Below, piece after piece: positions 2,627 through 57,690 of a stretch of DNA of 64,000 bases. A model generated the notes under the pieces. The model had not been told where the DNA came from, did no database searches, and saw nothing but the letters and a program-made list of their open reading frames with translations. The position numbers and the translations under genes are program-made. Position 1 is the first letter of the stretch. Every line of letters begins with the position of its first letter. The stretch lies in the sequence record NC_025447.1, one strand, 5' to 3'. This DNA comes from Escherichia phage 121Q.

Positions 2627-3253
2627 TTGGAGATTACTATGACTACATCGGAAAAGTACTGGTGGATTTTGGGTCATCCTAAATTCATAAACAAAGATAT
2701 GGTTCCAGCTAGGATTGATATTGAACCTCATGATGTGTGTCCAATGACAAATCGAATTGAAGATTTCAAAGCATTGAATACAAAGACTCAATTTTGGGTA
2801 GAATTTCTTTCACCAATGTATATTGAGCAAGACGACGAATGGGTACAAGCACATGATTATCAATTGGATTGTGGTGGTGATACGTATGAAGAGGCCATTG
2901 ATGAATTATACAAAAATGTGCTAAGAACATATGGTGATTATACCCAACAGGAAGCAGATGATAAATTTCATAAAATACATTCATTCAATGCATCACAATC
3001 AATATATAATCCCGCTAAAACAGTTTGGGAGGAACGACACAGTTGGAGTTCATGTGTAATCGATGAAGAAACCAAAGAAAAAATTATCGATGACATAAAA
3101 AATTTAAAAAATACAATCCAAGCCTTGCGTGCATTCATAAAGTCTTGTACAATAGAAGAACAGCAAGAGGCAAAGATACATTTGGAGAGTGAAGAATGTA
3201 AACTTTGGGTTCTAGAAAAATCACTTGAAAAGGGTATAGACTTAGACTTATGA
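2627..3253 (+). CDS. hypothetical protein
   Basis: 208-aa ORF with GGAG RBS (ttggagattactATG). Confidence 0.5.
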   Translation: MEITMTTSEKYWWILGHPKFINKDMVPARIDIEPHDVCPMTNRIEDFKALNTKTQFWVEFLSPMYIEQDDEWVQAHDYQLDCGGDTYEEAIDELYKNVLRTYGDYTQQEADDKFHKIHSFNASQSIYNPAKTVWEERHSWSSCVIDEETKEKIIDDIKNLKNTIQALRAFIKSCTIEEQQEAKIHLESEECKLWVLEKSLEKGIDLDL

Positions 3254-3618
3254 ATAGTAAATTGGAGAAACTTGTTGAAGAATTACGCCGGATGCCACCT
3301 ATTGAGCAAGTAGGGAACTACAAGCGGTATCGTGTGATTGCTCGTGCACTGGATAAAAAAGGTCGAGTACTGGCAACCCGCACAAATTCTTATACACAGA
3401 CACATCCAGTACAGAAAGGTTTTGCAATTCGTGCTGGACGTCCACAAGGTGAATTTCTCCATGCTGAAATTTCTTGCTTATTAGCTGCACGTGCTGATGT
3501 TCATACTTTACTGATTGCACGGATAAGTAAAGATGGTATTCCTGTACCTGCTAAACCATGTGAAATTTGCACATTAGCAATTATGGAATACGGGGTTAAG
3601 GAAATTATCCACACATGA
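3250..3618 (+). CDS. CMP/dCMP-type zinc deaminase family protein (short form)
   Basis: HAE...PCxxC zinc-binding signature (FLHAEISCLL ... AKPCEICTLAI) typical of the cytidine/deoxycytidylate deaminase superfamily; only 122 aa, so exact substrate is unclear. Confidence 0.55.
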   Translation: MNSKLEKLVEELRRMPPIEQVGNYKRYRVIARALDKKGRVLATRTNSYTQTHPVQKGFAIRAGRPQGEFLHAEISCLLAARADVHTLLIARISKDGIPVPAKPCEICTLAIMEYGVKEIIHT

Positions 3619-5222: not shown

Positions 5223-7091
5223 ATGTTGTCTGGTGATATTAAATATCTTCACCCCCAGATGATTTCAAAATACAAGGAATGTACAATGCAATTAGATAAA
5301 TTATATACCGATGTAACAAATTTCCTAAATCAGAGTAATACTGATCTTACTAATGAAAACGCTAATAAAGATGCAAAATGCGTCAATACACATAGAGATT
5401 TACTAGCAGGTATTCTATCTAAGCATTATTCACAAGATGTTATTCCCACCGAGTTAATGCAATGGCATAATGATGGATATGGTCATATTCATGATTTAGA
5501 TTACTATATTAGCCCATTGACCAATTGTTGCTTGGTTAACTATCCTGATATGCTTAAAAACGGCTTCACTATTGGTTGTGCTAAAATTGAAGAACCAAAA
5601 AGTTTCAGTGTAGCTTGCACAGTACTGACACAAATTGTCCAAGCTGTTGCCAGTTCCCAGTATGGTGGTCAATCTTTGGCTCACATTGATGTCGGATTAG
5701 AACCTTACGTTCAAAAGTCATGGGATAAGCTGTTAGAAAAACAAAAGAAATATAATCTAAGTGATGAATTCATTGAAGAAGAACTACGTAAAGAAGTGTA
5801 TGATGGCTGCCAAACATTACTTTACCAAACTAATTCAATGATTAGTACTAATGGTCAAGCTGCATTTATTTCTCTTAGTTTAGGTCTTAACACTTCTAAA
5901 TTTGGCAAATTAATCACTGAACAGTACTTAAAAGTCCATGAGAATGGTTTAGGTAAAGATAAGATTACTCCAGTGTTTCCTAAAGTAATTTTCTTTTTAC
6001 AAGATGGTATAAACATGAATACCAACGATAGTAATTATGACCTTAAACAGTTAGCTATGCGTTGTGCATCAAAACGAATCTACCCTGACTTTGTTTCAGT
6101 ACCATTAAATCACAAAGTGACTGGAAGTAGTAGTACTGCTGTAACACCGATGGGCTGTCGTTCATTCTTAGGAAAATGGGAAGATTCAAATGGAAATGAA
6201 CAATACAACGGTCGTTTCAATTTAGGTGTGGTTTCTATCAATTTACCTCTAATTGCTCTTGAGAGTACTTCTGACGGAGAGTTTTTTGATAAGATAGACG
6301 AGCATATGAATATTGCATATCGTGCTCAGATGAACCGCGTAGAGCGTTTAAAAGGCACTAAAGCAAAGCAAAATCCAATTTTGTTCATGGAAGGTGCATT
6401 AGCACGTTTAGGTGCAGAAGAAACCATTGACAAGCTATTTTACAATGGTTATGCTAGTATTAGTATTGGTTATGTTGGACTTGTTGAATGTTCAGAAATC
6501 CTCACTGGTTCTATCAGTAAGGAGTTTTGTATGTCAGTACTGAATTATATGAAAGTAAAATGCGATGAGTTCAAAAAAGAGAGTAATATAGCTTTTAGTC
6601 TATATGGAACTCCAGCAGAGTCACTTTGTTATAAATTTGCACGTTGTATTGAAGCAAAATATCCTTCAGTACTAAAACGTGATTACATCACAAATTCCTT
6701 CCATCAACCAGTATGGGTAGAAAGTTCTCCATTTGATAAATGGAGTTATGAAGAAGGCTTTGCTTACCTAAGTAACGGTGGAAACATCAGTTATGTTGAA
6801 TCTCCAAACTTAGCAAACAACATTCAAGCACTTGAAACATTAGTTAACTATGCTTACACGAAGATACCATATTTTGGTATTAACCAACCAGTTGACCATT
6901 GTTATGAATGTGGCTTCCAGGGTGAGTTCAGTGTAGATAAACATGGTTTCCACTGTCCGGTATGTGATAATCGTAATGAGAAGACAATCTCAGTGATTCG
7001 TCGTGTTTCTGGTTACTTGGGTAATCCTTCTTCGCGTGGATTCAATAAAGGCAAACAACAAGAGTGTTGTGAGCGTATTCAGCACAAATAA
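5223..7091 (+). CDS. nrdD: anaerobic ribonucleoside-triphosphate reductase (class III RNR)
   Basis: 622 aa; C-terminal glycyl-radical motif (IRRVSGYLG) and Zn-ribbon (CYECGF...HCPVCDN) characteristic of NrdD; T4-like phages encode NrdD/NrdG. Confidence 0.9.
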   Translation: MLSGDIKYLHPQMISKYKECTMQLDKLYTDVTNFLNQSNTDLTNENANKDAKCVNTHRDLLAGILSKHYSQDVIPTELMQWHNDGYGHIHDLDYYISPLTNCCLVNYPDMLKNGFTIGCAKIEEPKSFSVACTVLTQIVQAVASSQYGGQSLAHIDVGLEPYVQKSWDKLLEKQKKYNLSDEFIEEELRKEVYDGCQTLLYQTNSMISTNGQAAFISLSLGLNTSKFGKLITEQYLKVHENGLGKDKITPVFPKVIFFLQDGINMNTNDSNYDLKQLAMRCASKRIYPDFVSVPLNHKVTGSSSTAVTPMGCRSFLGKWEDSNGNEQYNGRFNLGVVSINLPLIALESTSDGEFFDKIDEHMNIAYRAQMNRVERLKGTKAKQNPILFMEGALARLGAEETIDKLFYNGYASISIGYVGLVECSEILTGSISKEFCMSVLNYMKVKCDEFKKESNIAFSLYGTPAESLCYKFARCIEAKYPSVLKRDYITNSFHQPVWVESSPFDKWSYEEGFAYLSNGGNISYVESPNLANNIQALETLVNYAYTKIPYFGINQPVDHCYECGFQGEFSVDKHGFHCPVCDNRNEKTISVIRRVSGYLGNPSSRGFNKGKQQECCERIQHK

Positions 7092-50129: not shown

Positions 50130-50157
50130 TTGACAAGTTGAAACGATGTGATATAAT
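50130..50157 (+). promoter_or_regulatory. sigma70-like promoter, copy 2 of duplicated element
   Basis: TTGACA-agttgaaacgatgTGA-TATAAT; near-identical to the copy 94 nt upstream. Confidence 0.65.
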
Positions 50158-50326: not shown

Positions 50327-51652
50327 ATGACTACTCAAAACGATATCCTGAACGTTAAACTGACTCCAAAGAAAGCTAAAGAAGCAATGGCACTAGCTGA
50401 CATGATTCAAGATAGCCTGATGATTTGGGGTAGCCCAGGTATCGGTAAGTCTGCAATCGCTCGTCAATACGCTGATGAAAATTACCCACTGCGTAAAGAT
50501 AACGTAGCTAAAATCGAGTTCATGAAACAACAAATCGAAGCTGACCCTGAAAATGCTGATCAGCTACGCCGTGAACTGGCTGCATTTGAAGCAAAACTAA
50601 TCGACCAAGATACTAACTTTATCGATTTCCGTTTGTCTCAAATCGAACCAAGTGACCTTCGCGGTATTCCAGTACCAGAGAAGCTTTTCCGTAAAACTGA
50701 CGGTTCTCTTCTGAAAGAATCTGAGCTTGCCGAAGCAAAAGATTATGTAGCTGAAACTGCGGTAGTATGGGCTGCACCTAAAGTTCTGAAATTGTCCGAA
50801 GATTGGAAAGGTGTTATTCTGTTTGACGAAATTAACTCTGCAATGCCTATTGTTCAGGCAGCGTCTTATCAGCTAATCCTCGACCGTTGTGTTGGTGAGA
50901 TGAAGCTACCTAAGACTGCACTGATTCTTGCAGCAGGTAACCGTGAAACTGATGGCGGTGTAACTTTCTCTCTTGCTACACCACTGCGTGACCGTATGAC
51001 TCACATTGAGATGATTCCTTATCATCAAGATTGGATTAACGATTATGCGATTGCAAAACGTTTGAACCCAGCAACTGTTGCGTTCATCAACAACACTGGT
51101 TCTAAGTACTTTAACACACTTAGTCCACAAGATCCTTCTCACAGTGGTGGTACTTCTCCACGTTCATGGGAAGCAGTAGCACGCTACGAAGATCTCAAGA
51201 AAACTAAGACAATTGATAAAGAAGTGTTCCGTGCAATGATTGCTGGTCGTGTTGGTGAAGGTGTTGCAACTGAATACATTGAGTACGTTGAGAACGTTGC
51301 TAAACTACCAGATACTATGTCTATTCTGTCTGGTGAAATCAAAGAAATCGACGCAACGCTGGATATTTCTGCGAACTACTTTATCACTCTGAACTTGGTT
51401 TATAAAATTATCGACCTGTTCAATGAGAAGCAAGAACAACGTCTACCAGTGGAAGAATGGGGTAAACTGTGTAACAACTTCATCACCTTCCTAGACCATA
51501 ACTTCTCTGCAACTCAAGCAGAACTGGCAGTACTGGCAATTCGTACCATCACGCTTCATAAGGTTGCGATTTCCATTAAAGATGTACCAGCGTTTAAAGA
51601 TTTCATCGCTAAGTACTCTGAACTTGTACGTAAAGCACGCTCTCTTGGCTAA
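50327..51652 (+). CDS. MoxR-like AAA+ ATPase
   Basis: Walker A WGSPGIGKSAIARQYA and Walker B VILFDEINSA; 441 aa; AAAGGAAA RBS; partnered with a VWA protein downstream. Confidence 0.8.
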   Translation: MTTQNDILNVKLTPKKAKEAMALADMIQDSLMIWGSPGIGKSAIARQYADENYPLRKDNVAKIEFMKQQIEADPENADQLRRELAAFEAKLIDQDTNFIDFRLSQIEPSDLRGIPVPEKLFRKTDGSLLKESELAEAKDYVAETAVVWAAPKVLKLSEDWKGVILFDEINSAMPIVQAASYQLILDRCVGEMKLPKTALILAAGNRETDGGVTFSLATPLRDRMTHIEMIPYHQDWINDYAIAKRLNPATVAFINNTGSKYFNTLSPQDPSHSGGTSPRSWEAVARYEDLKKTKTIDKEVFRAMIAGRVGEGVATEYIEYVENVAKLPDTMSILSGEIKEIDATLDISANYFITLNLVYKIIDLFNEKQEQRLPVEEWGKLCNNFITFLDHNFSATQAELAVLAIRTITLHKVAISIKDVPAFKDFIAKYSELVRKARSLG

Positions 51653-51726: not shown

Positions 51727-53151
51727 ATGTCAGATAACAAATCTACTTCCAGATTCAATGAAGTATCTCCGGCACTCCAGAAAGAATGTCAAGATCGTCT
51801 GGTTCTGGCTCGTACATCTTTGATGTTAACTGCACCATTCTTTGGTGTACTCGCTTCACGTTTACGTCCAGTTCCTAATAATACATGGTGTCGTACTCTA
51901 GCAGTTGATGGTAAACATCTATTCTACAACGTAGAATTTGTAATGGGTATTCAAGACCCATCTAAAAAGAAAGAATATGAAGAAGCTATTCGTGAAAAGC
52001 ATCCTGAAGTTACAGACGAACAATTAAAAGAAATGACTGAAGGTTTGACTGATGAAAACCTTATTGCTGTAATTTGTCATGAAATTCTACACTGTGCTTA
52101 CGATCACTTCCTTCGTCGTGGTATGCGTGATCCACAACGTTATAACCGTGCAGCGGATTATGCCATTAACCAAATCATCGTTCGTGAGAAAATTGGAAAA
52201 ATCCAAAGTTCATGGTTGTATGATAAAAAATATGAAGGTATGACCGCAGAAGAGATTTACATTCTTCTTGAAGAAGAAGAACAAAAAGAAGATGGTGAAG
52301 GTGAAGGTCAACCACAAAGTGGCGGCGGTGAAGGTGAAGGTAAAAATCGCGGTACTTTTGGTGATATTAAAGATGGTAAGGGTAAACCAAAAGGTACTAC
52401 CATTGACCAGCATGACGTTCCACAAGAAGGTCAAGAAGGTGGTTCAAGTGAACAGCAAAAACGTGATTATATGGATGATTTCAAAACAGCAATGATGAAT
52501 GCTGCACGTGCAGGTGGTACACCAGCAGAAATCGCTCGTATGATTAACAACTTTAAAGAACCAAAGATTGACTGGCGTTCAAAACTTCAACGTACACTTC
52601 GTAGTTGGTTGAAGTCTGATGCAACGTATCAAAGTCCTTCTCGTCGTTCATGGGGTGCTGGTTTTGGTTCTAATGGTTCATTCTATGGTAATCCAATTTA
52701 CCCAGGGATGAAACCAGATGATGATATTGATATTGCGATTGCACTAGATGCTTCTGGGTCTATTTCTGAAGATATGCTTCGTGATTTCATTAGTGAAGTT
52801 CTTGGCATCACTAAACAATTCAAACAGTTTAAGATTCGTATCATGACTTTTGATACTGAAGTTTATACTGTAAAGGATTACAAAACTGGCGAAGAACGTA
52901 AGATTCTGGAATATCCAGTAAAAGGTGGTGGTGGTACTGACTTTGAAGCAGTATGGGTTCATATGAAGAACGACAACTACAAGCCTAAACAGCTTGTAAT
53001 GTTTACTGATGGTGAACCGTGGCAGTCATGGGGTGATCCAAACTACTGTAAAACACTGTTCGTGATTCACAGTAACCCAAATAAAGTTGCACCATTTGGT
53101 GAGACTGTACACTACGAATATGAAGCTGATAAAAAGCGTCAACGTAGTTAA
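51727..53151 (+). CDS. VWA-domain protein with N-terminal HExxH metallopeptidase-like domain (DUF2201-type architecture)
   Basis: HExxH (ICHEILHCAYDH) in the N-terminal half, Gly/Glu-rich linker, MIDAS motif DxSxS (IALDASGSIS) in the C-terminal VWA domain; ACGAGGAAA RBS. Confidence 0.75.
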   Translation: MSDNKSTSRFNEVSPALQKECQDRLVLARTSLMLTAPFFGVLASRLRPVPNNTWCRTLAVDGKHLFYNVEFVMGIQDPSKKKEYEEAIREKHPEVTDEQLKEMTEGLTDENLIAVICHEILHCAYDHFLRRGMRDPQRYNRAADYAINQIIVREKIGKIQSSWLYDKKYEGMTAEEIYILLEEEEQKEDGEGEGQPQSGGGEGEGKNRGTFGDIKDGKGKPKGTTIDQHDVPQEGQEGGSSEQQKRDYMDDFKTAMMNAARAGGTPAEIARMINNFKEPKIDWRSKLQRTLRSWLKSDATYQSPSRRSWGAGFGSNGSFYGNPIYPGMKPDDDIDIAIALDASGSISEDMLRDFISEVLGITKQFKQFKIRIMTFDTEVYTVKDYKTGEERKILEYPVKGGGGTDFEAVWVHMKNDNYKPKQLVMFTDGEPWQSWGDPNYCKTLFVIHSNPNKVAPFGETVHYEYEADKKRQRS

Positions 53152-53163
53152 GTACTAAATAAA

Positions 53164-53194
53164 GAGAACGGAATTTTCCGTTCTCTTCTTTTAT
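53164..53194 (+). terminator. rho-independent terminator
   Basis: GAGAACGG-aatttt-CCGTTCTC followed by TTCTTTTAT. Confidence 0.7.
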
Positions 53195-53196
53195 AA

Positions 53197-53226
53197 GTGG
53201 GACAACTTATAAAAATATGATATAAT
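53197..53226 (+). promoter_or_regulatory. sigma70-like extended -10 promoter (GTGGGACA-N16-TGA-TATAAT)
   Basis: aGTGGGACA ... atATGATATAAT; same motif as at 34184 and 23439. Confidence 0.55.
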
Positions 53227-53260
53227 AGTTAATGTACCAATATACATGGAGAGTATTAAA

Positions 53261-53506
53261 ATGGAACAAGAAAATAATCAAATTCAACTAACCCTTCTAG
53301 ACCTAATCAATGCTGCAAAAATCATGGAAGCTGCTGTTGCACGAAACACCTTTAAAGTTGAAGAACTTGTTGAGGTTGCTCCAGTTGTATCTAAATTTGT
53401 TTCTTTTGCAAATGTAGCTCTTGAAGATATTAAAGCACAAGAAGATGCAGCTAAAGAAGAAGCTGAATCACAAGATAGTGAAACTCAAGAAGATAAAGGA
53501 GAATAA
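53261..53506 (+). CDS. hypothetical acidic protein
   Basis: Start placed at ATG 53261 (GGAGAG 6 nt upstream) rather than track start 53246. Confidence 0.45.
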   Translation: MEQENNQIQLTLLDLINAAKIMEAAVARNTFKVEELVEVAPVVSKFVSFANVALEDIKAQEDAAKEEAESQDSETQEDKGE

Positions 53507-53508
53507 TT

Positions 53509-54165
53509 ATGGCAGCTATTCGTCATGTTGGTGTAATGCGTAATACAGGTTCTCGTGTTTTTGTTGTTTGGCGTTCACTACCAGATGATCCTGAACACTG
53601 CCTTATCGTTTATCGTGATTCACTACCAGAAGCATATGTTCACGCAGTAACTGATATTGTTATGGGTCATGGTCAATCTAATATTGATTTGTGGGAAGTA
53701 ATGCATAAAATTGGTTATCTCGATGGACGCAAAATGCTAGATGTTCTACACAACATGCAGCATCTACGTCGCGTTCGTACTTGTGACATTGATATGCACA
53801 CTGGTGGTAATAATAAAATTTCTCTTGATGTTCTAAACAAAGCATTAGATGAAAATCAAGCGAAAGTACAAGAAGATGGTAAAGTAAAAGACTTTAACCC
53901 ATTCAATCCACAAGAAGCGGACACTAAAGTAGAAGAAGCTACTATTGTAGAACAACTTCTCACTGATGCACAAAAATATGAAAAACTGGCTAAAGAACAT
54001 TATGAACGTGCATACAATTTAGAGCCAAGCTTGCGTCCGCAAACACAAGTTGTTGAACAACCGAAAGATAGTAAAACAATTTATCTAGAAATTCCAGAAG
54101 GTATTTCACAGACTAAAGCTATTGAGAAAGTAAAACAACTATTTGCAGAACGTAAAGCAAAATAA
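53509..54165 (+). CDS. hypothetical protein
   Basis: 218-aa ORF, start 3 nt after upstream stop. Confidence 0.5.
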   Translation: MAAIRHVGVMRNTGSRVFVVWRSLPDDPEHCLIVYRDSLPEAYVHAVTDIVMGHGQSNIDLWEVMHKIGYLDGRKMLDVLHNMQHLRRVRTCDIDMHTGGNNKISLDVLNKALDENQAKVQEDGKVKDFNPFNPQEADTKVEEATIVEQLLTDAQKYEKLAKEHYERAYNLEPSLRPQTQVVEQPKDSKTIYLEIPEGISQTKAIEKVKQLFAERKAK

Positions 54166-54168
54166 AAT

Positions 54169-54762
54169 ATGAAAAAGAATGAATTAGATGAAGCAATTAA
54201 AGGTTTATCTAATGTATGTTTTAGTGGCGGGGCAGCAGGTGCTGACCGCCTTTTTTCTATCTATGCAAAAAATAATGGATTTGAAGTTATTAATTTTTCA
54301 TTCAAAGGTCATGAGCATAGTGTAGATGAAAGTACTATATTAGAAATACCATCCAATATTCTATCTGATATTTCTATATTAAATCAACTAAACATTGCAT
54401 GTTACTCGTTGCAGCGAAAAGTACCAAAACCTGGTTCTTATGTTTACAACTTACTTGCAAGGAATAGTTATCAGATACTTAATACAGAAAGAATATATTG
54501 TATTGCAAATATCACATCACCAACTAAGGTAAGTGGTGGTACTGCATGGGCAGTACAGATGTATATGGATTCAGTTGAAAATCCTGAAATTTATTGTTAT
54601 GATATGAATTCACGTTCAGTATTTTATTTCGATACAGTACTGAAAGAGTTCACACAAACATTCGTCGTTCCAGCACCACATGGTAACTGGACTGGTATTG
54701 GTTCACGCAATGCCACCGAAAAACATATGGAACATTTTATTACATTTTTCAAGGAAGAATAA
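54169..54762 (+). CDS. Rossmann-like protein with GGAAGAD motif (possibly SLOG/DprA-like)
   Basis: VCFSGGAAGADRLFSIYA resembles the glycine-rich loop of SLOG/DprA-type folds; ATGA overlap with the downstream thymidylate-synthase gene. Confidence 0.3.
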   Translation: MKKNELDEAIKGLSNVCFSGGAAGADRLFSIYAKNNGFEVINFSFKGHEHSVDESTILEIPSNILSDISILNQLNIACYSLQRKVPKPGSYVYNLLARNSYQILNTERIYCIANITSPTKVSGGTAWAVQMYMDSVENPEIYCYDMNSRSVFYFDTVLKEFTQTFVVPAPHGNWTGIGSRNATEKHMEHFITFFKEE

Positions 54763-55691
54763 TGAAACAACTACAAGAACTATATCAAAAAATTCTAGAT
54801 GAAGGCGTAGAAAGCGTTGACCGTACTGGTGTTGGAACAATCAAACTTATCGGTCAACAAATGCGTTTTGACCTTAAAGATGGTTTCCCAGCAGTGACGA
54901 CAAAACGTCTAGCTTGGAAAGCAATGACTTCAGAATTACTATGGTTTATTGAAGGTTCCCATGATGAGCGTCGCCTTTGTGAAATTTTGCATGGAACTCG
55001 TGATACAGAAAAGAAAACTATTTGGACAGATAATTACCTAAATCAAGGCGTTGCTCTTGGTTATACTGATGGTGAGTTAGGTCCAGTGTATGGTAAGCAA
55101 TGGCGTGAATGGGAAGATTATAAATTTAGTTCCAGTACTGAAGAAATTCAAGAATTAAAAGATAAAGGATACAAAGTTATCGATTATACTGGTTCACATG
55201 GTGTTGTTATGAAACGTACAACTGACCAATTACAAGAACTAATCAAAGGTATAAAGTCCGATCCATATGGCCGTCGCCACATTCTAAGTGCATGGAACGT
55301 TGGTGAGCTTGATGATATGACGTTACCACCTTGTCATAGCTTTGTGCAATTTTGTGTAGTGCAAGGAAAACTAAGCTGTATTCTGCATCAACGCTCCGCT
55401 GATCTATTTTTAGGAGTTCCATTTAATATCAGTAGTTACTCACTACTAACTCATATGATTGCACAAATTACTGGTTTAGATGTTGGTGAATTTATTTGGA
55501 ATGGTGGTGATTGTCACATTTATAAAAACCACGTTGAACAAGTAAAAGAACAACTACAGCGAAAACCTCGTGAATTACCTGAATTGTGGCTTGATCCTAC
55601 AATTACTAATATTGAAGATTTCACTATGGATTCTTTTAAATTAGTGAATTACAACCCAATGCCAACAATTAAAGCACCTATGGCTGTATAA
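54762..55691 (+). CDS. thyA: thymidylate synthase family enzyme (ThyA/Td-like; dUMP-specific by the conserved Asn)
   Basis: LAWKAMTSELLWFIEGS ... LPPCHSFVQFCVVQGKLSCILHQRSADLFLGVPFNISSYSLLTHMIAQ ... GDCHIYKNH: catalytic Cys in PCH, folate-binding blocks and Asn in PFNISSY. Confidence 0.85.
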   Translation: MKQLQELYQKILDEGVESVDRTGVGTIKLIGQQMRFDLKDGFPAVTTKRLAWKAMTSELLWFIEGSHDERRLCEILHGTRDTEKKTIWTDNYLNQGVALGYTDGELGPVYGKQWREWEDYKFSSSTEEIQELKDKGYKVIDYTGSHGVVMKRTTDQLQELIKGIKSDPYGRRHILSAWNVGELDDMTLPPCHSFVQFCVVQGKLSCILHQRSADLFLGVPFNISSYSLLTHMIAQITGLDVGEFIWNGGDCHIYKNHVEQVKEQLQRKPRELPELWLDPTITNIEDFTMDSFKLVNYNPMPTIKAPMAV

Positions 55692-55698
55692 ACGAAAA

Positions 55699-55724
55699 GG
55701 GAGAACATCAGTTCTCCCTTTTTT
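55699..55724. terminator. bidirectional terminator between convergent genes
   Basis: GGGAGAAC-atca-GTTCTCCC flanked by A-run and T-run; lies between thyA (+) and the minus-strand fibre gene. Confidence 0.7.
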
Positions 55725-55725
55725 A

Positions 55726-57690
55726 TTATCTAATTGTTACCAATGTTCTTCCGTCGAAACGTACATCAGGAGTTGAAGGTATACTAAACACTACGTTAGT
55801 GCCGTTAAACGTAACGCTATCGACCTCAACACGAGTATAGACACCAGGACTAACCTGTTCCTGTATCTCTGCTGTGACGATGTTTGAGGCTGTTACAGTA
55901 AGGGTGTAGTAGTTACCACTTAATACCCAAGATGAAATTGTAAAAGCATCGGTTCTCACTGAACCTGAACCAATTGGAACCCATTGACCTTGAACTTTTT
56001 GCATTGAAGTACGCTCGGTATTGGAGTATGCAATCATACCATCAACGCCAACAGAGTTATCAATAGTAGCTAGTACTGGTAATTGGATACCATATCTATT
56101 AAAACGTGTTCTTATAGTTCCATTATCATAGATACTTACATCAGCATAATTACCCATTGATAGTTTTAAATCAGAACTAACTAATTGGATTGTACTTTGA
56201 TTAGTAGTACTTTCTAATGTAATTATACCATTAGCTAATAGATTTATATTTTTAAATTTATTAGTTGTTCCATTGAAATTAGTGTTTGCTGTAAACGTAC
56301 TAACTCCATTAACTGTAATTGTATCAGATGCAGCATCGCCTAATGTAGTATTACCTTGAATGTTCAAATTACCACTAGCAGTGATATTACTAGCTGATGT
56401 ATCACCAGTCAATGTACTTGTACCATCAACCACAATATTACCATGAAACGCACTTTCACCATTTTTAAATTCAACTTGTACTTTATTCATTGAACTAAAT
56501 GAAATAATATTACTACTAGCACTTAGTCCAACATTAGTATTGGTTGCATTATCAAATCTTAGTACTGGGGTTGATGCTGGGGTTGAAGTTGTTTGGTATA
56601 ATGTTAATGTTGAATTATTAATTCTAATACGTTCAGTTCCAGCAGTACTGAAACCAATTGCATCATCTGCTGGATGAAACATACCAGTATTAGCGTCTGA
56701 CCATTTTGCAGGATCATTACCTGGGTTATTGGTTGGATCAAATGGATTGTTATTAAATGTCAATGCTGGTGCTGCTGCACTACCATAGACCACACCAAAA
56801 CGCCCTGAGCCGCTTGTTCCATCATTATACATGGAATCACCAGTTCTACGTAAACACTCAATCACAACGTTATCTATGGATGTTTGAACGGTCCCTGCGT
56901 TTGTCCTAAATTGACGATGATTTGCAATCATTACAGTATTGTCATATAATACTGAAGCAGCGGAAATGCTTGTTCTTGACTGGCGTAGACGTATGTTTTT
57001 ATCTTCAGTTATAATAATCCAATCACCATCTGATAGTGCGGTTTGGTTCATTGGAACACCTGAAGCAAATGGTTTGGTTAAGTCAGCATCTGTTGCTAAA
57101 TTTTTAAGACCATCATGACCAGTACTAGGAATAGATGCAGGAATAATTCTAGCGAAAGCGTATGTTACTAGTTTAGCACCAGATATATTTGGATTAGAGT
57201 CAACATAATATAAAATTTCAATCCAATTACCTTGTCCAGTTGGATTTGTAGGTGTAAATGTAACAGGACTTGTTTGTGGATTATTTGCTTCATAATGGGC
57301 TTGTGCGGCATCCATAATACCACGAACAACATAATAATCACCATTTAGTGATGCTGCTGGTGCTGGTAGTGGTGTTTGTGCTAAAGGTGGATCAATATCA
57401 TCTGGGATAGGATTGTATGTACCAACAAACTGTAAACCACTAGTTACTGAATCTGGTAATTGGGAAGTAAGAAGTTTACCATTTGCATCTAAGTTTGCAA
57501 AGCGGCGATATGCCATAGTACCATCTTCAAAATCCAGAACACCTTCAAATGATTTCCATTCCTTATTGTATCTAATCATCCCTGATCTTATTACATCAGC
57601 GGTTTCTTTTGATGGTGCTTTCGGTAACTCTAAAAAAGATTTACTATCAATAATTACACCACCATCACCTCTAATTCGATTTATACTCAT
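55726..57690 (-). CDS. tail fibre protein
   Basis: 654 aa on the minus strand; Thr/Asn/Gly/Ser-rich with repetitive beta-rich segments (NITASGNLNIQGNTTLGDAASDTITVNGVSTFTANTNFNGTTN); late-promoter-like TATAAAT upstream. Confidence 0.65.
   Translation of the reverse strand: MSINRIRGDGGVIIDSKSFLELPKAPSKETADVIRSGMIRYNKEWKSFEGVLDFEDGTMAYRRFANLDANGKLLTSQLPDSVTSGLQFVGTYNPIPDDIDPPLAQTPLPAPAASLNGDYYVVRGIMDAAQAHYEANNPQTSPVTFTPTNPTGQGNWIEILYYVDSNPNISGAKLVTYAFARIIPASIPSTGHDGLKNLATDADLTKPFASGVPMNQTALSDGDWIIITEDKNIRLRQSRTSISAASVLYDNTVMIANHRQFRTNAGTVQTSIDNVVIECLRRTGDSMYNDGTSGSGRFGVVYGSAAAPALTFNNNPFDPTNNPGNDPAKWSDANTGMFHPADDAIGFSTAGTERIRINNSTLTLYQTTSTPASTPVLRFDNATNTNVGLSASSNIISFSSMNKVQVEFKNGESAFHGNIVVDGTSTLTGDTSASNITASGNLNIQGNTTLGDAASDTITVNGVSTFTANTNFNGTTNKFKNINLLANGIITLESTTNQSTIQLVSSDLKLSMGNYADVSIYDNGTIRTRFNRYGIQLPVLATIDNSVGVDGMIAYSNTERTSMQKVQGQWVPIGSGSVRTDAFTISSWVLSGNYYTLTVTASNIVTAEIQEQVSPGVYTRVEVDSVTFNGTNVVFSIPSTPDVRFDGRTLVTIR

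Follow-up and report, generated by a model that had tools for sequence, protein, structure and literature searches.

The gene pair at positions 54,169-55,691 of a 64,000-nucleotide (nt) stretch of Escherichia phage 121Q (NC_025447.1), which we refer to in its entirety as the window, raises the question of whether two adjacent phage genes serve plain synthesis of deoxythymidine monophosphate (dTMP) or a more elaborate chemistry. The first gene (54169..54762, plus strand) encodes a 197-amino-acid (aa) protein with a GGAAGAD motif and the second (54762..55691, plus strand) a 309-aa protein related to the thymidylate synthase (TS) ThyA, and an initial annotation suggested that their pairing could indicate a nucleotide-modification pathway. 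Taking all of the evidence together, we lean, by a small measure, towards a package in which the TS is conventional, the 197-aa protein is a circularly permuted SLOG protein acting as an accessory of nucleotide supply, and hypermodification plays no part.

The placement of the 309-aa protein in the TS family is borne out by every profile library in which a match was recorded. It scores 340.4 bits (7.7e-102) against PF00303 (Thymidylat_synt; cut-off 24.3), matches phrog_160 at 3e-116, and passes the curated cut-off of the NCBIfam equivalog NF002497 (342.9 bits, cut-off 327). Structures of E. coli TS align with the phage protein from the first to the last residue, with the exception of one insert of ~32 aa (residues 119-150), which lies at the site of the L. 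casei TS small domain; L. casei TS itself aligns with the protein in a single stretch.

We then considered substrate specificity in a five-way alignment of the 309-aa protein with E. coli ThyA (EC 2.1.1.45), the product of T4 gene 42 (gp42, a deoxycytidine monophosphate (dCMP) hydroxymethylase), that of SPO1 gene 29 (gp29, a deoxyuridine monophosphate (dUMP) hydroxymethylase) and gp117 of Salmonella phage dinky (a ViI-type enzyme). Identity to E. coli ThyA is 53% over the full length, as against 24% to T4 gp42, 20% to SPO1 gp29 and 24% to dinky gp117, and the phage protein is of TS type throughout. It keeps D20-R21-T-G, E58, T-I-W88, LGPVY110GKQWR, R171-R172, P-C191-H192, Q210-R211-S212-x-D214, H252 and Y254, among which C191-H192, R21, R171, R172 and R211 match the catalytic cysteine and the phosphate-binding arginines of the E. 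coli enzyme (R21, R126', R127' and R166). N222, in PFNISSY, corresponds to the asparagine at E. coli position 177 that specifies uracil, and so dUMP, over cytosine; T4 gp42 has an aspartate there. The C-terminus, PTIKAPMAV, aligns right to the end of E. coli TS; in TS enzymes it is this tail that shuts the active site over the folate so that hydride transfer can take place. The three hydroxymethylases share with the phage protein the ThyA fold family, the catalytic cysteine and the RS-D core, but they lack LGPVYGKQWR and the IKAPMAV tail; the TIW, PCH and QRS signatures are also missing from the dUMP hydroxymethylases, whose long unrelated C-termini are not seen in the 309-aa protein, and T4 gp42 is truncated. 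What separates the phage enzyme from E. coli ThyA is the ~32-aa insert and the location of its gene in a structural-gene block. Judged from these residues, the 309-aa protein is almost certainly a true dTMP synthase that converts dUMP to dTMP.

This result bears directly on the proposal that the enzyme is instead a pyrimidine hydroxymethylase which, together with the 197-aa protein, feeds DNA hypermodification. The proposal has precedents, in that ThyA homologs act as hydroxymethylases in T4, SPO1 and ViI-type phages, hydroxymethylase genes cluster with deoxynucleoside monophosphate (dNMP) kinases, as in dinky, and the SLOG superfamily includes the nucleotide-processing LOG and PpnN proteins. 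All of the TS-specific features that were tested are nevertheless present, identity to the hydroxymethylases is low, and the equivalog cut-off is passed. The dinky gene adjoins a kinase, a dNMP kinase and a nucleoside triphosphate (NTP) pyrophosphohydrolase, which is the setting one would expect of a thymidine-hypermodification cluster. Across the 64-kilobase (kb) window, as annotated in an identical twin genome and out of a whole genome of ~350 kb, there is no annotated 5-hydroxymethyldeoxyuridine (5-hmdU) or other DNA kinase, glycosyltransferase, aminotransferase, dCTPase, dUTPase or other modification partner. The window carries a conventional route from a dCMP deaminase (3250..3618, plus strand), the supplier of dUMP for ThyA, through TS to a dNMP kinase (38130..38756, plus strand). 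Two further arguments against a modification role, developed below, are that thyA and the gene for the 197-aa protein are neighbours in a single phage clade, and that the position of the catalytic glutamate of LOG proteins is occupied by an invariant alanine in the family of the 197-aa protein.

The same picture emerges from close relatives of the phage. Over positions 53000-56500 identity is 100% with the Escherichia phages vB_EcoM_G17, Sharanji and SP27, and 98-99.9% with PBECO4, phAPEC6, slurp01 and others, all of them jumbo myoviruses of the genus Asteriusvirus in the Rak2-like group. Rak2-like relatives are described as following the same route, through dCMP deaminase, TS and dNMP kinase, and as having no genes for hydroxymethylcytosine (hmC) or glucosylation (PMC5259590; PMC7247149). 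RaK2 itself showed methylation-type restriction behaviour, according to data that its authors did not show (PMC3622015), and methyltransferases are the only modification genes reported for the Sharanji genome (PMC11895373). Given the complete set of TS features, the conventional dTTP route, the restriction of the gene pairing to one clade and the reports of methylation only, the modification pathway that the initial annotation had in mind is not supported; a hydroxymethylase at this locus is highly improbable, and very probably no hypermodification pathway is encoded there at all.

What, then, is the 197-aa protein? By fold and motifs it is a circularly permuted, stand-alone member of the SLOG superfamily, and by hidden Markov model (HMM) it belongs to no curated SLOG family. 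The profile search anticipated in the initial annotation gave a clear match in PHROGs (phrog_768, 'DprA-like', 1.3e-26) but not in the curated libraries: no Pfam model is matched above its cut-off (YAcAr reaches 20.2 bits, with a cut-off of 28.2), PF02481 is not matched, and NCBIfam gives no match. In an alignment of 45 homologs, Pfam detects YAcAr in 17 and DprA in 3, in every case below threshold, and PDB sequence searches with the 197-aa protein and with the 45-member profile returned no meaningful match. The alignment defines four motifs, SGGAxGxD at 19-26, LLxRNxxQ at 95-102, GGTxWAxQM at 123-131 and GIGSR at 176-180, which in the 197-aa protein place SGGAAGAD at 19-26, RN at 98-99, SGGT at 122-125 and GSR at 178-180. 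Since six of the eight positions of the first motif (S19, G20, G21, A22, G24 and D26) are invariant in the 45 homologs, SGGAAGAD is not a chance run of glycines. The G123-G124-T125 loop is invariant or nearly so, and R83, D134, P168 and P170 are near-invariant.

An AlphaFold2 model of the protein (pLDDT 96.6, pTM 0.91) is filled by a single domain with a three-layer Rossmannoid fold, and a Foldseek search with it ranks 3imk first, this being also the best sequential structural match. That entry is a 'putative molybdenum carrier protein' from Syntrophus aciditrophicus, which we take to be the structural representative of PF12694 (cpYpsA, named in Pfam 'circularly permutated YpsA SLOG family'). 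The phage protein shares with cpYpsA a GSR strand brought to the C-terminus by permutation, and yet the PF12694 HMM finds no match at E <= 0.05 in the 197-aa protein or in the 45 aligned members; the sole relative that matches it, the distant P0214, does so at 19.5 bits, below the cut-off of 26.2. SLOG membership therefore follows from the AlphaFold2 and Foldseek results together with the four permuted signatures. The early description of a Rossmann-like upstream protein with a SLOG/DprA-like glycine-rich loop thus holds up well, and links to nucleotide-handling genes are seen in the broader family too.

The DprA-like label suggests a different role, in which the protein would bind single-stranded DNA (ssDNA) and aid recombination or repair, in the manner of ShosA, which offsets damage that arises when the nucleotide pool is disturbed. 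ShosA is an ssDNA-binding protein and counteracts a PRTase toxin whose action upsets purine metabolism (PMC11961720), helicase fusions occur in some relatives of the phage protein, and the phage protein itself has the full set of four DprA signature motifs. The order of the motifs, however, differs. E. coli Smf/DprA has GSR (113-115), SGLARGID (141-148), RRN (209-211) and SGSLVT (230-235), that is, GSR, SGxAxGxD, RN and SGxxT, whereas the phage protein runs SGxAxGxD, RN, SGGT and GSR, with the GSR element C-terminal. At 197 aa in total it also lacks the SAM and C-terminal domains of DprA/Smf and ShosA, and a comparison of the family profile with E. coli Smf by hhalign is not significant (E 0.44), with RN motifs paired in the top segment. 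The isoelectric point (pI) of 5.75, compared with 6.49 for the Smf Rossmann domain, and the presence of only three conserved basic positions go against DNA binding, in a test of charge and pI that is not discriminating. The neighbours of the gene are nucleotide enzymes and not recombination genes, and with the sub-threshold DprA matches confined to 3 of 45 members we regard an ssDNA-binding role as improbable.

In considering those neighbours we began from the junction with thyA itself. Both open reading frames (ORFs) and their coordinates stand as initially annotated, but the 4-nt ATGA coupling proposed with them does not: the junction reads GAA-TAA-TG-AAA, so that the stop codon of the SLOG gene (TAA, 54760-54762) and the start codon of thyA (ATG, 54762-54764) overlap by 1 base (TAATG), and the ATGA string is simply present in the sequence. 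An AAGGA resembling a Shine-Dalgarno element lies 8-12 nt 5' of the thyA ATG, within the end of the SLOG gene. Since overlaps occur in 18 of the window's 77 neighbouring same-strand ORF pairs, this one, taken alone, is little guide to function.

The distribution of the pairing is more informative. Our neighbourhood set comprised 107 loci, of which 79 were viral (17 Rak2-like and 62 other) and 28 bacterial, in addition to the window twin. With a limit of ±6 kb around the SLOG gene, thyA is a neighbour in 18/18 Rak2-like cases (the 17 viral loci and the window twin) and in 0/62 other viral and 0/28 bacterial loci; adjacency of the two genes is confined to this one phage clade. Even there the arrangement varies. 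An ORF of 115-125 aa with acidic and aromatic repeats stands between them in 12/17 Rak2-like loci (L004, L006-L014, L017 and L025, at ~6585-6965) and is missing from the subgroup of the window, which makes direct overlap a feature of the Asteriusvirus subgroup; in RaK2 the two genes are separated by a gap of 5 nt.

The only new lead to come from the analysis is that the usual neighbour of the SLOG gene in other large phages is a dNMP kinase gene. Of the 62 other viral loci, 47 have a homolog of this kinase, at a median distance of 33 nt; it is recognised by Pfam DNMK above the cut-off and by phrog_139 (7e-45). In 27 loci it shares the strand of the SLOG gene and lies directly 5' of it, the two genes overlapping by 4 nt in most cases. 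The usual order in the other large phages starts with the head-tail adaptor and several small genes, after which come dNMP kinase, SLOG and tail sheath; the window has adaptor, a small ORF, dNMP kinase (immediately 5' of the sheath gene) and sheath, with the SLOG gene ~15 kb downstream, beside thyA. The link to the kinase is kept in varied arrangements, including those with the sheath on either side, with SLOG before the kinase, and in a context of ParB and Acb1 without tail genes. Among 250 SLOG family proteins there were no fusions to a dNMP kinase.

The family itself is large. An exhaustive profile search returned 2,646 cluster representatives at 50% identity, 699 of them at E <= 1e-30, and most members are stand-alone proteins of ~180-200 aa. 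A homolog detectable by tblastn is found in 84 of 50,697 deposited phage records, nearly all of them Rak2-like jumbo phages, with the addition of Atu_ph07, Cr30, Phosso and crAss-like phages. In Klebsiella phage Pylas (MH899585.1, 42467-42958) the SLOG domain lies within an ORF annotated as 'RNA polymerase'.

These neighbourhoods suggest how the parts might fit together. ThyA works with the dCMP deaminase and dNMP kinase of the window in what is the usual phage route of dTTP supply. The SLOG protein would bind a ligand of the nucleoside-5'-phosphate type in a conserved pocket formed by S19, D26, R83, R98, Q102, T125 and R180, and it probably serves the nucleotide-supply genes as an accessory for binding, sensing or regulation and not as a pyrimidine-modifying enzyme. 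dTMP is a plausible common ligand, as it is both the product of TS and a substrate of the kinase. The evolutionarily conserved and oldest partner of the SLOG protein would then be the dNMP kinase rather than ThyA, and functionally the protein may belong with the auxiliary nucleotide and NAD metabolism of phages. We put at about even the chances that what it does is linked to dNMP metabolism, rather than to counter-defence based on NAD or ADP-ribose (ADPr) or to ssDNA binding. A more ambitious possibility, which we hold only tentatively and consider rather unlikely, is that the family is a new component of deoxynucleotide metabolism, either a dNMP-binding regulator or channelling partner of kinase and TS, or a dNMP-processing enzyme not of the LOG type. 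Such a component would explain why the SLOG gene has stayed beside the kinase through rearrangements, and beside thyA in Rak2-like phages.

A related proposal is that the SLOG protein is an N-glycosidase of (deoxy)nucleoside 5'-monophosphates, which would edit the pool by removing surplus or unwanted dNMPs beside the kinase or TS. SLOG proteins of the LOG family are nucleoside monophosphate nucleosidases (PpnN is so annotated), the neighbours of the phage family include dNMP kinase, ThyA, dCMP deaminase, adenylate kinase and a PurA-like gene, one relative is a fusion of a histidine phosphatase to SLOG, and the authors of the RaK2 genome found no dUTPase homolog (PMC3622015). The chemistry is harder to accommodate. 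Where LOG proteins have PGGxGTxxE, this family has SGGTAWAxQ, so that the catalytic glutamate is replaced by the invariant Ala128, three residues after the threonine; the motifs resemble those of the non-catalytic DprA type; and hhalign finds no significant match between the family profile and E. coli PpnN. Pool editing of this kind therefore seems to us a poor prospect.

The remaining alternative is that the protein binds or degrades immune signals derived from NAD+ or ADP-ribose, such as isomers of cyclic ADP-ribose (cADPR), and that its position next to thyA is incidental. Viral SLOG domains of the YpsA clade have been predicted to sense or degrade such signals (Iyer, Burroughs, Aravind; PMC9503650; PMC7824862), with genome-level co-occurrence of Macro, NADAR and Nudix domains (PMC9503650), and the same work noted sporadic fusions of viral SLOG to guanylate-kinase-type domains (PMC9503650; PMC7824862). 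Within the present family, the SLOG domain occurs in giant proteins of 1,700-4,000 aa (P0195, P0222, P0245 and P0150 among the fusion set). In one of the giant proteins ART-PolyVal, a superfamily 1 (SF1) helicase and DUF7831 precede it; in P0195 a NADAR domain follows it directly; and P0245 combines it with a sub-threshold NADAR and DUF1848. On some contigs the SLOG gene lies near a dCMP deaminase and two NAD-salvage genes, NAMPT and NMNAT-Nudix; elsewhere it is found near adenylate kinase and SIR2, after a KptA-type gene and the dNMP kinase, or near PRTase_3 and HAD. In 21 loci on Flavobacteriaceae chromosomes the SLOG homolog is followed by a WYL+WCX regulator, and the window itself has a Macro domain and a Nudix gene in the same strand block as the pair. 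Set against this, none of the 107 loci has a Macro, Nudix, NADAR or His-phosphatase homolog in the ±6 kb around its SLOG gene, the Macro and Nudix genes of the window are ~18 kb away, polyvalent proteins combine many unrelated modules, and the dominant neighbour is the dNMP kinase. We consider counter-defence possible, though the less expected function for this protein.

Two of these settings deserve a note in their own right. The bacterial loci (L086-L106, from Flavobacterium, Paenimyroides and Myroides, with SLOG at ~6001-6486) usually lie beside topA and miaB, and a few have a duplicated SLOG gene. On the metagenomic phage contig L116 (3503-10555), a homolog of adenylosuccinate synthetase (PurA/PurZ-like) lies directly 5' of the SLOG gene, and His_Phos_1, PRTase_3 and TelA lie 3' of it; the segment may be a nucleoside-metabolite island.

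Several of these observations tell against the nucleotide-supply accessory that we prefer. They include the NADAR and ART-PolyVal/helicase/DUF7831 fusions, the neighbouring NAD-salvage, SIR2 and KptA genes, and the pairing of bacterial homologs with WYL+WCX regulators instead of nucleotide enzymes; on the side of sequence comparison, they include the sub-threshold YAcAr score, the lack of any Pfam match above cut-off or to PF02481, and the two non-significant hhalign comparisons. To these must be added the relatedness of the loci that carry the kinase signal. The SLOG proteins of the 62 other viral loci form 23 clusters at 60% identity, in 10 of which the kinase is immediately adjacent, and collapse to 4 at 45%, so that inherited synteny explains part of the signal and could account for much of it. 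For the absence of hypermodification, the literature yielded no nucleoside analysis of DNA from G17 or Sharanji.

The wider organisation of the locus is that of a short transcription unit. The SLOG gene and thyA appear to be the last two genes of a four-gene unit (53246-55691) that lies between terminator-like hairpins, these hairpins and the promoter described here being consensus matches and not proof. The unit would begin with an 86-aa ORF (53246..53506, plus strand; phrog_13789) and a 218-aa ORF (53509..54165, plus strand; phrog_15894), both clade-specific and without an assigned function. A terminator-like hairpin with an 11-bp stem and a T-rich tail (53162..53187, plus strand) closes the preceding unit. 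Between it and the 86-aa ORF sits a sigma-70-like promoter candidate (53199..53226, plus strand) with an extended -10 element, TGATATAAT, at 53218-53226, which matches the consensus only. Directly 3' of thyA, a strong terminator-like hairpin with a 13-bp stem (55694..55723, plus strand) faces convergent tail-fibre genes. A T4-like late motif is reported for the Rak2-like group in the CBB paper; no T4-type late promoter core, TATAAATA, lies near the four-gene unit, and in the 64 kb as a whole it occurs 2 times, compared with the 10.8 expected from shuffles.

Products of this region have been detected in virions of a close relative. Mass spectrometry (MS) of phAPEC6 virions identified the TS gp259c (window 54762-55691) by 3 unique peptides with 10.7% coverage, gp262c, the 218-aa product (window 53509-54165), by 1 peptide, and the MoxR-type ATPase gp265c (window 50327-51652) by 6 peptides (PMC7247149 Table 1). 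The phAPEC6 DNA is 99.8% identical to the window in the gp259c region, and thyA sits inside a block of tail genes. The TS of T4 was described as a baseplate component in old and disputed reports. The SLOG ORF is intact in phAPEC6 (MK817115.1; L082 2670-3263, equivalent to window 54169-54762), with one synonymous base difference, but the record splits it into gp261c, in a different frame, and gp260c, which holds only the C-terminal 65 aa. We considered and rejected a disruption of the gene, as the ORF is complete and the record mis-annotated. The absence of the SLOG protein from the virion list is consequently uninformative, the MS database having lacked most of the protein. Other records give the SLOG ORF as 'long tail fiber proximal subunit' (CRJP21) or as hypothetical.

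Elsewhere in the window, whose G+C content is 31-39% throughout, the plus-strand block that holds thyA also encodes the anaerobic ribonucleotide reductase NrdD/NrdG. A 158-aa product (35518-35994) is a Macro (ADP-ribose-binding) domain by PDB sequence matches (2fg1, 1e-15; the macrodomain 5e3b, 1.3e-11; the ADP-ribose 1''-phosphate phosphatase 6lfu, 3.8e-6), with no Pfam match and the PHROGs label 'phosphatase'. Just 5' of its gene are those for a Nudix hydrolase (34286-34687, plus-strand block) and a glutaredoxin (34689-34937, plus-strand block). Upstream of the four-gene unit, in the segment 50023-53151, a promoter that fits the sigma-70 consensus perfectly (TTGACA-16-TATAAT, with TG) lies at 50130-50157, ahead of the MoxR-type AAA ATPase gene (50327-51652), which is followed by a gene (51727-53151) for a protein with DUF2201_N metallopeptidase and VWA domains, for which the PHROGs label 'HNH endonuclease' looks wrong. 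Each of these two genes has a terminator-like hairpin at its 3' side.

The outcome has implications for how this locus should be read in a group of widely isolated E. coli jumbo phages that are candidates for therapy. It is mostly negative, in that there is no genomic sign of thymidine hypermodification at the locus, and the annotation of thyA stands. The inconsistently annotated 'DprA-like' protein is a SLOG domain in circularly permuted form, its pocket is very sharply conserved, and the genes that recur around it are those for dNMP kinase, ThyA, dCMP deaminase and NAD salvage. The finding is otherwise largely ordinary, and its residual interest lies in an abundant, sharply conserved and so far uncharacterised protein family. 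Its ligand would separate two roles, that of an unrecognised regulator of nucleotide supply and that of a counter-measure against nucleotide-based immunity.

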